A stretch of 64,000 bases of DNA from Escherichia coli O157:H7 (GTDB lineage: Bacteria; Pseudomonadota; Gammaproteobacteria; Enterobacterales; Enterobacteriaceae). The DNA lies in NCBI RefSeq assembly GCF_013167455.1, contig NZ_CP038328.1; one strand, given 5' to 3'. The notes below the pieces were generated by a model, which saw only the letters and a list, made by a program, of their open reading frames with translations, did not search any database and was not told the DNA's origin. The position numbers and the translations under genes were made by a program. Positions 2,758-61,423 of the stretch are shown one piece after another. The stretch's first letter is position 1; each line of letters opens with the position of its first letter.

Positions 2758-2982
2758 TCCTGACTTAATGCCGCAAGTTCGCCAAATCGACCTGGATTAA
2801 CCTCCGTCCAGGTTCGATGACCTTCTTAATACTGCTTATCTACCCGCCTGATATTGTTCAAAAATAATACTAATCGCAGTTTGTGTTAAAACGGCGGCTT
2901 AGCTTTATGAGATTATTCTTATCGTCCCTTCAAGAGCTAAGCCACTGAGAGTGCCGGAGATAAGCGCCGGATGGGGTAGAAA

Positions 2983-3020
2983 CCCTTAAGCCTGTGTCGC
3001 ACAGACTTAAGGGTTTTCTT
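2983..3020 (+). terminator. Rho-independent terminator hairpin (possibly 3' end of sRNA RydB)
   Basis: Near-perfect inverted repeat cccttaagcctgtg / cacagacttaaggg followed by ttttcttatttc on + strand, about 225 nt past ydiH stop. Confidence 0.5.
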
Positions 3021-11993: not shown

Positions 11994-12549
11994 GACAGTC
12001 TTAGTCTTTAAGTTGAGAAGGATGGGAGAAACTTGCTTTCTGGGCGCACTGCCGGAAAGCGAATCCGGTATTACGAAAGTGGTGGTGCCTCGCTCTAAGG
12101 ATAGGTGACATCGAAAAAGCGTGCAGAGGAATGTGTGCTTGTGTCTCAGCCCAACGTGAGTGCCTGTTTTTGAGTCGTTGAGTTCTACAGTCCAAAGTGC
12201 TGAAACCATTCAAGAGTCAATTGGCGCGCATTATACGCTGAAATTAATCCAAAAGGAAAACAAAAACAGCGTTTCAAAAAATATACAACTTGTTAGACAA
12301 TAAATTGTTATCAAAGATTTAACGTTCCAGGGAAAAGGTTACGCAAAAACTTCGCTGTTTGCGCAACGTCTGGTGCCGGGGTTGTCACTGTGAAGATAAG
12401 TGAAAGTTCATCCGGTGTATAAATACATCATCGCTCAATTGCTACAGTTAAAATAATTTATCGCGTTATTTGTCTGATTTTGTTTGATTTTTGTTTAATT
12501 GGTTAGATTGATATATGCTGATAGTTGGCATGATAAATAGGTATAAAGA

Positions 12550-20686: not shown

Positions 20687-20992
20687 TCAGGCGAGTTTTG
20701 CCTGATTGATTTGACTCAGTGGCTCATTGACATCGAAAACTTTGGCGACAACTTCCTCAACGCCGAGTTTTTTCAGTTGGGCAGTGTGTTTTTCCAGATA
20801 GGCAAGGGCGCTTTTTTCATCAGTGAAAAGGTAGATCCCACCGGCTTCGTGGTTCTTTTCACTTTCTGTCCATACCTTCCACAGAAAACCAGGTTCCTGA
20901 TTAATCGACTCTGCAAGTGGTTTAAGCTGCTCAGCCATTGCGTCGCCAAATGGGCCATTAAAAGCAAAATGAAGTTGTAACAAAGTTGCCAT
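20687..20992 (-). CDS. ydhR: Small uncharacterised protein YdhR (101 aa)
   Basis: 101-aa ORF; synteny. Confidence 0.7.
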
Positions 20993-21099
20993 AGCGATTC
21001 TCCTTCTGATAACGCATACGAAGACAGTGTAAATCTTTTAACGTATTGGATACAGAGAAGAAGCAGAGGGAAAAAGGAGAAGACCAGATTAACAAAATC

Positions 21100-21176
21100 T
21101 GGTGCGTCCGAGTGGACTCGAACCACCGACCCCCACCATGTCAAGGTGGTGCTCTAACCAACTGAGCTACGGACGC
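21100..21176 (-). tRNA. valV: tRNA-Val (GAC)
   Basis: Reverse complement reads GCGTCCGTAGCTCAGTTGGTTAGAGCACCACCTTGACATGGTGGGGGTCGGTGGTTCGAGTCCACTCGGACGCACCA; anticodon GAC; encoded CCA. Confidence 0.9.
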
Positions 21177-29848: not shown

Positions 29849-29894
29849 TCCATTTCACTCCAGACCCTAACTTCAGCTCCTGCAAAATCGCAAG

Positions 29895-29907
29895 GTAAAC
29901 GTTTGCC
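29895..29907. promoter_or_regulatory. PUR-box-like operator in purR leader
   Basis: gtaaacgtttgcc with AAACGTTTGC core, about 50 nt upstream of purR start. Confidence 0.4.
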
Positions 29908-30146
29908 TTTACACACCTTACGCACAACAAAAGTGTTGCGGTACGCCGGAAAAACGACACGGAGCGTCAGGAAGGGGTCAATGGCCAGTACGCAAATAGT
30001 GTAAGCGTGGAATTTTGGCCGATCTTGACGAAAAGGGGAAGTGGTAAAAACACTTATCATTATAAATGACGGGAGATTTTTTCATCACAGTGTGTAAAAA
30101 TGCGTAATATCACTTTTTGTGTGGTAATAAAAAAGGAGAAAACTTG

Positions 30147-30236
30147 ATGAGCACCGACCTTAAATTTTCACTGGTAACAACGATTATCGTCCTCGGTTTG
30201 ATCGTGGCCGTGGGTTTGACTGCCGCGCTGCACTGA
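30147..30236 (+). CDS. ynhF: Small hydrophobic protein YnhF (29 aa, single TM)
   Basis: ATG 30147 preceded by aaaaggagaa; encodes MSTDLKFSLVTTIIVLGLIVAVGLTAALH; below ORF-track length cut-off. Confidence 0.7.
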   Translation: MSTDLKFSLVTTIIVLGLIVAVGLTAALH

Positions 30237-30401
30237 TTTCCTCTCGAGGGAGCGCGTTCTCCCTCGCATCTCCTTCCTGTTTGTTAGCAAAATGGCAAAA
30301 GTGTTTTCTCTTTTTGTTATTTTCATTTTTTTGTGATTGCTGTCATGCTTTCGCCACTTTAATGAATATCGCGTAATGACGCGAAGAGGTGGAGATAAGG
30401 C

Positions 30402-45556: not shown

Positions 45557-46413
45557 TATTGACCTACGGCAATGCTACAGGTGGTGCCCGACACCAGCGT
45601 GACATCGCCTGGAACTTTATCCAGCGCAAAGCGGACGGGAACGCGTTGGGCGAGACGAACCCAGGGGACGTTAGGTTTCACATCCGGAATAAGGCTTGAG
45701 TCACTTTCAACGCTCTGATCATAAATCGCCCGACCGATACTGGAAACGTGACCCTGTAACGTTTTGTTATCACTATAGAGGGTAATTTGTGCTGGTGCAC
45801 CTTCGCGGATATGGCGCAACTTGGTTTCTTCAAAATAACCAATGACGTAAAACGAGTGGCTGTCGACAAGGGCAAACAGCGGTTTCCCGGTGTCAGCGTA
45901 ATCGCCGATGCGGGTAGTGAGATTAGTCACCCATCCACTCACCGGGGCGCGAATTTCCGTTTGCGCCAGTTGCCATTGTGTCTGTTTCAGCGTCGCCTGT
46001 GCGGCATCAACACTGGCCTGCATCGCTTTAACATTGAGGTTAGCGGTATCGAGTTCTTCGGCAGAAATAAAATTTTGTGAGAGATGACGACGACGATTCG
46101 CTTCGTTATTGGCTTTTGCGAGGTCAGATTGCGCTTTCGCCAGCTGAGCCTGTGCATTCAGCTCGGCGATCTGAAAGGGCGTTTTATCGATCGTGAGCAG
46201 AAGATCCCCCGCGTTAACCAGCTGGTTGTCTTTTATATTCAGCTCAACAATACGTCCCGACACCTGTGGGGTGATAGAAACCTGTTCTGCGCGTATTTTC
46301 CCGTCGCGTGTCCACGGAGATTGCATGTAATAATTCCACAGCCACCATCCGGCAAGAACCGCAACTACCGCTACAATGATTGTTGAGAAATACTTAATTG
46401 TTTTAATTGACAT
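45556..46413 (-). CDS. ydhJ: Membrane fusion protein (HlyD/AaeA-like) YdhJ, 285 aa
   Basis: Start at [18 protein letters not shown]-terminal TM then coiled-coil; 1-nt overlap with ydhK. Confidence 0.8.
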
Positions 46414-46415
46414 AG

Positions 46416-46652
46416 TTACCACGCAATCAGTATTGCCAGAGCAAGGCAAACGCAAATCGCAAACAGCGATAAATCCATTAACAAGGGATGCCAGATGTCA
46501 CCGGCGTAGATCCAGCCACGAAGCAGGCGGTGTACGACAAGCCAGATGACGAATCCAAACGCGAAGGCTTTGAAAAACGGAGGAAAGTAGACGGACGCAC
46601 CGAACACCAGATCTTGTAAGGGCAATCCTGTTGCATTGAGCATAAACTTCAC
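46416..46652 (-). CDS. ydhI: DUF1656 small membrane protein YdhI
   Basis: 78 aa; two TM segments; first gene of ydhIJK. Confidence 0.75.
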
Positions 46653-46846
46653 AAAGTAGATTCCTTTACGACCGAATATATTGCGTTAGATTAATAAATA
46701 TTCTTTAACTGCGAAAAATTTACGCGCAATTTCTGAAAAATATGTCTGACGGTAACCAAATGCAGCAATACATTTGTTTTAGCAATACAATTGCTGCACA
46801 CTATTCTAAAAGCCGCATAATATCTTAGCAAGCTAATTATAAGGAG

Positions 46847-47287
46847 ATGAAATTGGAATCGCCACTAGGTTCTGATCTGGCACGGTTGGTGCGCATATGG
46901 CGTGCTCTGATAGACCATCGCCTGAAACCGCTGGAGTTAACACAAACCCATTGGGTTACGTTACACAATATCCATCAGTTACCTCCAGACCAGTCGCAAA
47001 TTCAACTGGCAAAAGCGATTGGCATCGAGCAGCCATCACTGGTCCGTACTCTGGACCAACTGGAAGAAAAAGGGTTAATTTCGCGTCAAACTTGTGCCAG
47101 CGATCGTCGGGCTAAACGTATTAAACTGACGGAAAAGGCAGAGCCGCTGATCAGCGAAATGGAAGCTGTTATTAACAAAACCCGCGCGGAAATTTTACAT
47201 GGCATCTCCGCAGAGGAACTGGAACAACTGATTACGCTCATCGCAAAACTTGAGCATAATATCATTGAGTTACAGGCCAAAGGGTGA
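46847..47287 (+). CDS. slyA: MarR-family transcriptional regulator SlyA
   Basis: Translation matches SlyA; reference protein (144 aa) is usually annotated from the in-frame TTG at 46853, the ATG at 46847 adds 2 residues. Confidence 0.9.
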
Positions 47288-47333
47288 AATGAAGGGGGCG
47301 TGTGGTCAGTAACCTGACCACACGCAAACTTAT

Positions 47334-47801
47334 TTAGCGCGGAGAAACGGTCACCTGACTGCCATTGCTGGCCAGTACGACACGTTGGCCCGGAGAGAAA
47401 CGAGTGTTGCCTTGTTTCTGTACCACCATGATGGTATTACCATCGTCTTTACGAATTTCCAGCTCGACACCTTGCGTTTTGTTCATTGCACTCTGTACGC
47501 CCTGACCAGCTACGCCACCTGCAACAGCGCCTGCTGCAGTAGCCAGAGAACGCCCGGTTCCGCCACCAACAGTATTTCCCAGGAAACCACCAAGAACAGC
47601 ACCGCCAATTGCACCGATAACGTTGGAATCATCACCGCCCTGAATCTGTACCGGACGTACGTTAACGATGGTTCCATAGCTGACATTCTGTACTTGTTTC
47701 GCTTCAGAAGCGGTATAAACATCCCCTGACAGGGTGTCGTTATTAACACAACCGACAAGAGACAGACCTACCATTGAAACAACCAATACGCGTTTAATCA
47801 T
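47334..47801 (-). CDS. slyB: Outer membrane lipoprotein SlyB
   Basis: 155 aa; lipobox LVGC; Gly-rich region. Confidence 0.9.
   Translation of the reverse strand: MIKRVLVVSMVGLSLVGCVNNDTLSGDVYTASEAKQVQNVSYGTIVNVRPVQIQGGDDSNVIGAIGGAVLGGFLGNTVGGGTGRSLATAAGAVAGGVAGQGVQSAMNKTQGVELEIRKDDGNTIMVVQKQGNTRFSPGQRVVLASNGSQVTVSPR

Positions 47802-58534: not shown

Positions 58535-61423
<2,889 letters not shown>

Follow-up and report, generated by a model that had tools for sequence, protein, structure and literature searches.

Translation of slyA, the gene of a virulence and counter-silencing regulator, has been described as starting at a near-cognate codon. Curran et al. 2017 (PMC5797941) state that slyA has an 'unusual UUG start codon', and McVicker 2011 (PMC3173223) cites Kawakami 1999 as the source for this start; in the title of the latter paper (Kawakami et al. 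1999, Microbiol Immunol 43:351), TTG and not ATG is named as the start of Salmonella slyA. When UUG is replaced by AUG, SlyA rises more than 5-fold on Western blots and fimB expression also goes up, and the level of SlyA is about 1000 dimers per cell (McVicker 2011, PMC3173223). For Escherichia coli K-12, the N-terminus has been recorded by N-terminomics in the TRAINSPOTTER dataset (PMC13245402), where row 352 of Table S1 lists slyA (b1642) with a TTG near-cognate codon as a database start site. This row carries 'Ribo-RET, INRI' and REPARATION support, and its peptide is Met-initiated and covers residues 1-11 of the 144-aa protein P0A8W2. The TTG start of slyA is thus already established by published experiments and by current reference annotation.

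Related loci show the same arrangement or informative departures from it. In Salmonella enterica slyA, two loci carry the same TAAGGAG ATG AAA TTG GAA TCG CCA and encode the same 144-aa form; compared with E. coli, the coding sequences diverge mostly in the C-terminal third. The slyA orthologue of Klebsiella pneumoniae, kvrA, has the same AAGGAG-ATG-AAA-TTG in three loci. There, AUG is the annotated start, and the kvrA authors call the true start unknown. The orthologous regulator gene rovA of Yersinia also begins with TTG at the homologous codon (AAGGAG GGG CAA TTG GAA TCG), with GGG in place of the upstream ATG; it is therefore without ambiguity and serves as a natural control for E. coli. 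Outside this family, E. coli rpsT (S20) likewise has a near-cognate UUG at a normal Shine-Dalgarno spacing, with the initiator Met seen by N-terminomics. It differs from slyA in that protein and regulation are unrelated, and no competing in-frame AUG abuts its Shine-Dalgarno.

Here, the slyA start was analysed in a stretch of 64,000 nucleotides (the window) of an O157:H7-like E. coli chromosome. The 60-nt context given for K-12 slyA in TRAINSPOTTER is identical to 46824-46883 of the window, so that the two do not differ at the start site. In our reading, to which we assign a probability of about 95%, slyA translation starts at UUG 46853-46855 and yields a 144-aa SlyA (MESPLGS...). The geometry, the conservation and the annotation behind this reading come from the present analysis, and the Met-initiated peptide and the effect of the UUG codon come from the literature. 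The gene can be placed among the near-cognate UUG genes on the same grounds, with a conserved start position and functional spacing found here and a Met N-terminus and AUG effect taken from published data. We found no evidence pointing away from the UUG start. The importance of the question is modest overall, although the correct start does settle which SlyA N-terminus (MESPLGS..., 144 aa) to assume in expression constructs, in operator numbering and in proteomics searches.

The slyA locus and its recorded forms

The gene and its neighbours lie in the window as follows.

46853..47287, plus strand: slyA coding sequence, 144 codons and stop, MarR-family winged-helix transcription factor (NF002926, PDB 3Q5F)
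43544-46652, minus strand: ydhK, ydhJ and ydhI, divergent from slyA
47334-47801, minus strand: slyB, convergent with slyA

This order, with divergent ydhIJK upstream and convergent slyB downstream, is that of the Enterobacteriaceae slyA locus. The 691 bases around slyA match E. coli O157:H7 chromosomes with 100% identity. Of 5426 complete E. coli genomes, 5423 contain the region, annotated as slyA and flanked by ydhI and slyB. Around the start itself (46822-46881, 60 bases), identity is at least 99% in 5398 of these 5423 genomes, leaving at most 25 with a mismatch in the core.

The identity of the protein is equally clear. It scores 278.7 bits with the NCBIfam equivalog NF002926, 'transcriptional regulator SlyA' (cut-off 120 bits), and the 144-aa form aligns over its residues 1-143 with positions 1-143 of the 144 in the profile. 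For the 146-aa form the alignment begins at residue 3, which leaves its two extra residues outside the family profile. Among MarR/SlyA structures, those of Salmonella SlyA (3Q5F/3QPT and 3DEU) are matched with E values of about 2e-79 to 3e-79, and the RovA structure 4AIH with E = 2e-65.

Two N-termini circulate in public records. The two in-frame codons, ATG 46847-46849 and TTG 46853-46855, lie two codons apart. Read from the ATG, the mechanical open reading frame (46847..47287) encodes 146 aa (MKLESPLGS...), and read from the TTG it encodes 144 aa. The frame is shut upstream by an in-frame TAG (46826-46828), which makes the ATG the first possible start. The first-pass annotation had described this pair of codons at the same positions, and had named the TTG as the customary annotated start of SlyA, with 144 aa; the sequence and the reference records agree with both statements. 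RefSeq/PGAP gives the coding sequence as 46853..47287 (WP_001296943.1), that is, with a TTG start and 144 aa, and UniProt P0A8W2 (SLYA_ECOLI) is also 144 aa long. The 144-aa form occurs on at least 1000 contigs (RefSeq MULTISPECIES, UniProt SLYA_ECOLI), and the 146-aa form on 513 contigs (e.g. AAG56631.1) and in a recent RefSeq record from Citrobacter portucalensis.

The longer form would be the real one if ATG 46847 were the true start and TTG an internal leucine codon, giving a SlyA of 146 aa. This reading can appeal to the canonical nature of ATG, to its position as the first start codon of the frame, to the many genomes for which the 146-aa form has been deposited, to the annotated AUG of Klebsiella kvrA and to one crystal construct, 3DEU, in which the 146-aa form was used and LESPLGS follows a 22-residue leader. 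Other crystal constructs begin differently: 3Q5F/3QPT start with MESPLGS behind a short (3-residue) tag, and RovA 4AIH starts with MESTLGS. The 146-aa deposits and the 3DEU construct are annotation and cloning choices, not evidence that the ATG is used; what speaks against the ATG is given in the sections below.

Some E. coli genomes carry a SlyA of 154 aa, which was considered as a third option for the start and rejected. These entries (47285-47317; P0012 and P0014) are C-terminal, not N-terminal, variants that arise by loss of the stop codon. The stop is replaced by C or L, and translation runs through NEGGVWSVT to the next stop, adding 10 aa at the C-terminus and extending into the terminator hairpin described below.

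Geometry of the initiation region

As the ambiguity concerns one codon pair, no chance statistic applies to it. It can be tested by asking which codon has normal initiation geometry and which is conserved, and both tests side with TTG. The sequence around the start reads TTAGCAAGCTAA TTA TAAGGAG ATG AAA TTG GAA TCG CCA, preceded by ATATC, and contains the following elements.

46840..46846, plus strand: Shine-Dalgarno UAAGGAG, 7 bp with the 3' tail of 16S rRNA, duplex energy -9.3 kcal/mol
46847..46849, plus strand: in-frame ATG abutting the Shine-Dalgarno (gap 0 nt), opening the mechanical 146-aa reading frame
46847..46852, plus strand: A-rich spacer AUGAAA between Shine-Dalgarno and start codon, 6 nt, aligned spacing 5
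46853..46855, plus strand: UUG (TTG) initiation codon of slyA, read as fMet, as indicated by RefSeq, conservation and the published peptide

The AAGGAG core occupies 46841-46846, leaving a gap of 0 nt to the ATG and of 6 nt to the TTG. The first-pass annotation had already favoured TTG because the Shine-Dalgarno lies too near the ATG, a judgement borne out by geometry, by 115 species, by annotation and by published experiments; it had been mistaken in placing the end of aaggag 3 nt before the ATG, and the correct value of 0 nt makes the argument for TTG stronger. When the mRNA is folded against the 16S tail, pairing continues over one mismatch to UGA 46848-46850, with an energy of -11.4 kcal/mol, and the U and G of the AUG itself would then sit inside the Shine-Dalgarno helix. 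No second Shine-Dalgarno that could serve the ATG was found upstream of 46847, either in the sequence or by pairing with the 16S tail. In the reading with a 146-aa protein, initiation would thus have to proceed with a gap of 0 nt and no alternative Shine-Dalgarno, which counts against it.

The spacing was compared with that of the 63 annotated coding sequences of the window, with the annotation taken from O157:H7 strain 4276 and its coordinates corrected (the window differs from this strain by 20 substitutions and two 1-nt indels). A Shine-Dalgarno with a dG of -4 kcal/mol or lower is present in 45 window genes at a gap to the start of 3-13 nt, and none of these 45 annotated genes with a detectable Shine-Dalgarno has a gap below 3 nt, in a baseline that is partly circular because PGAP start calls themselves use Shine-Dalgarno geometry. 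With a gap of 6 nt and an aligned spacing of 5, slyA read from TTG falls in the modal class of the window genes, and its Shine-Dalgarno ranks 6th strongest among all 63. The start codons of these genes are AUG in 55 cases, GUG in 6 and UUG in 2. The sole other annotated UUG-initiated gene among them is ynhH (12001-12195, minus strand), which encodes a small protein directly upstream of pykF and is almost without a Shine-Dalgarno (dG -2.2).

The initiation region also appears to be open. In the predicted mRNA fold, 46836-46851 is unpaired, and the 101 nt around the initiation region fold worse than shuffled sequences (z = +1.79). A fold of 46800-46900 does pair 46852-46860 with 46868-46876 in a 9-bp stem that encloses the UUG, and this hairpin was considered as a possible RNA thermometer that sequesters the start codon. 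The candidate was rejected: just 9 of the 69 unique orthologous sequences retain all nine pairs, several of which are disrupted at synonymous sites, and the region has the weak folding just described.

These observations suggest how the UUG could be selected. The strong Shine-Dalgarno UAAGGAG would recruit the 30S subunit, and once its helix with the 16S tail had formed, the P site would lie over the UUG, about 5-6 nt further downstream. The AUG at 46847 could not be placed in the P site, as it sits immediately against the Shine-Dalgarno helix, with a U and a G that are themselves able to pair with the 16S tail. We infer that this steric exclusion is the reason why the AUG stays unused. As a near-cognate codon, UUG would make initiation inefficient despite the strong Shine-Dalgarno, so that SlyA levels are kept low; the weak UUG would in this way be part of how the cell holds down a regulator of virulence and counter-silencing.

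The start position across Enterobacterales and the use of the upstream AUG

The conservation of both codons was followed with one degenerate DNA pattern for the peptide THWVTLHN, taking one genome per species. The scan returned 120 loci, and 115 of them were kept as slyA/rovA orthologues with enough upstream sequence. In every one of the 115 species, the codon equivalent to TTG is the start codon, be it TTG (82 species), ATG (29) or GTG (4), and an AGGAG lies 5-7 nt before it. The lineages with a TTG start include Enterobacteriaceae, Yersinia, Rahnella, Erwinia and Providencia; those with ATG at this position include Pantoea, Pectobacterium, Dickeya, Brenneria and Lonsdalea, and GTG is found in 4 Serratia. 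Such lineage switching between TTG, GTG and ATG may relate to differences in the expression level of SlyA/RovA.

The upstream codon is far less constant. It is an in-frame ATG in just 61 of the 115 species and is absent as such from the other 54, with GGG, GGA, GGT, GAG, GAT, TGG, AGA, AGG or GTG in its place. An in-frame TAA separates the two positions in 8 species (four Rahnella, Hafnia, Serratia bockelmannii, Candidatus Pantoea persica and one Enterobacterales MAG), and nothing upstream can therefore be the start in these 8. Another 13 loci, of Pantoea type, read TAAGGAGATGAAATGG: here, the ATG abutting the Shine-Dalgarno persists outside the reading frame, and another ATG, formed one base closer, is the real start. 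Thus, the start position is fixed across the order, the identity of the codon varies by lineage, and the upstream ATG is dispensable as a codon. For a true start at ATG 46847, the species that lack an in-frame ATG, have a TAA in between or carry the ATG out of frame all count as contrary evidence.

The same pattern, in which all 115 start positions are conserved and the upstream ATG is often lost, separated by a stop or out of frame, speaks for moving the start in records with the 146-aa form to the codon equivalent to TTG. This is a matter of annotation hygiene, as the longer form persists in records that include the RefSeq Citrobacter entry and Klebsiella kvrA with its annotated AUG. For kvrA too, the comparative pattern argues for a UUG start.

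Some loci in the scan show further variation at the start. In Pectobacterium, Dickeya, Brenneria and Lonsdalea (four loci and others), the start of slyA reads TAAGGAGAGGTGATGGAA, in which a second Shine-Dalgarno-like element, GGTGAT, precedes the ATG start and agrees with the remainder of the 16S-complementary consensus; a tandem ATG ATG occurs in Pectobacterium versatile. In Enterobacter sp. Ag1 and Cedecea davisae, a 6-nt duplication (TCGCCA-TCGCCA) just past the start gives MESPSPLGS..., with the layout of Shine-Dalgarno, ATG, AAA and TTG unchanged.

Direct evidence on the N-terminus comes from the published experiments. The first-pass annotation had proposed mass spectrometry of the N-terminus and profiling of initiation sites as checks on the TTG, and had set an N-terminus beginning MKLESP as the finding that would speak for the ATG. 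The E. coli K-12 peptide listed in TRAINSPOTTER (PMC13245402) begins at the TTG-encoded Met, the Ribo-RET support in the same row favours the TTG, and an MKLESP N-terminus was looked for and is absent from the rows examined. As an internal TTG would give Leu, a Met before ESPLGS is possible only by initiation at the TTG, and a published peptide that opens with Met and not Leu goes against the ATG as the true start. The 5-fold effect of the mutation goes the same way, as changing an internal UUG codon to AUG would not be expected to lift SlyA to this extent. The published peptide effectively refutes the reading in which ATG 46847 is the true start and TTG encodes leucine, and we consider that reading to have almost no probability left. 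ATG 46847 is most likely not used as a start.

A different possibility is that both codons are used, with UUG giving the main 144-aa protein and AUG a minor 146-aa proteoform by initiation independent of the Shine-Dalgarno. Such a dual use would suit three observations: as a start codon, AUG is intrinsically much superior to UUG; the A/U-rich region is predicted to be unstructured; and ATG-AAA-TTG is invariant across 61 species. The lysines in the TRAINSPOTTER workflow are uncleaved (e.g. MANIKSAKKR), so that a SlyA initiated at ATG would give a peptide of the MKLESPLGS type. Neither such a peptide nor a row for an alternative slyA start is present among the rows of this single dataset that were examined, although extensions of one codon and longer appear there for other genes. 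Genes with dual starts yield two N-termini from one gene, and the rows examined hold one row for slyA. The supplement files examined from a Salmonella riboproteogenomics study (PMC11005335) list no SlyA N-terminal peptide. The absence of MKLESPLGS from one dataset leaves room for a rare 146-aa form. Nevertheless, constraints on the initiation region account just as well for the conservation of ATGAAA, given that the same string stands out of frame in 13 species, and two residues added to a disordered N-terminus have no obvious function. Use of both codons is judged highly improbable, and initiation at the UUG, with the 144-aa protein as its product, is retained as the explanation.

What the upstream AUG contributes to initiation at the UUG can be considered from its conservation as a string. 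The 61 species with ATG-AAA-TTG all share an unchanged AUGAAA, and 74 of the 115 species preserve TAAGGAG-AUGAAA as a nucleotide string, with the AUG in frame in 61 and out of frame in 13. Perhaps the abutting AUG acts in cis to adjust initiation at the weak UUG, either through a longer Shine-Dalgarno helix, as in the extended pairing with UGA 46848-46850, or as a decoy that draws the initiator tRNA, and maybe with a trace of the 146-aa proteoform under some conditions; we regard this as a speculative and rather unlikely addition to the UUG start.

Flanking elements and other features of the window

Two elements flank the coding sequence closely.

46825..46836, plus strand: SlyA operator-like palindrome TTAGCAAGCTAA, matching the published SlyA consensus, 3 nt upstream of the Shine-Dalgarno
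47298..47325, plus strand: terminator-like hairpin in the convergent gap between slyA and slyB, with a 12-bp stem of which 8 pairs are G-C, a 4-nt loop and then AAACTTATTT

Curran et al. 2017 (PMC5797941) place a SlyA site TTAGCAAGCTAA '22 bp upstream of slyA'. From the centre of the palindrome (46830.5) to 46853, the distance is about 22 bp, which agrees with a count from the TTG but not with one from the ATG. Among the Enterobacteriaceae loci compared, this site hardly varies. The hairpin is a putative terminator, proposed from its match to the consensus form.

The sole sigma-70-like match within 46600-47400 lies on the minus strand at 46803-46831 (TTGCTA-17-TAGAAT) and overlaps the operator palindrome. 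With 1 match found against 1.3 expected in shuffled sequence, it is probably due to chance.

Several neighbouring genes show differences between records. The gene ydhK (43544-45556, minus strand) is an intact 670-aa reading frame in the window and is annotated as 'frameshifted' in the otherwise near-identical O157:H7 strain 4276. The two ydhK sequences differ by a single A at 44600, which reflects either polymorphism between strains or, in one of the two records, a sequencing error in a homopolymer. The aldo/keto reductase gene ydhF (42045-42941, plus strand) is annotated in the O157:H7 reference as a pseudogene with an internal stop, and its reading frame in the window stops early, giving 262 aa (42045..42833). 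The start of ydhJ (minus strand) is also ambiguous: the mechanical reading frame runs from a TTG over 45556..46455 (299 aa), and RefSeq chooses an ATG at 46413, which gives 285 aa and is preceded by just a weak Shine-Dalgarno (dG -2.8). If read in its longer form, ydhJ would overlap ydhI, annotated at 46416-46652.

Further away, a 96-nt tandem repeat lies inside rsxC (minus strand) at 58582-59197, with 6.4 copies and 92% matches. It is in frame, with units of 32 aa, and is probably a variable-length repeat region of RsxC. Three Rfam matches in the window reach the gathering score.

29849-30239, plus strand: STnc550 (396 bits), spanning the purR-cydH intergenic region and overlapping the small gene cydH
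2924-2984, plus strand: rydB sRNA (78 bits), upstream of sufA
20976-21138, plus strand: HPnc0260 'antisense RNA' (107 bits), opposite ydhR and one of two tRNA-Val genes
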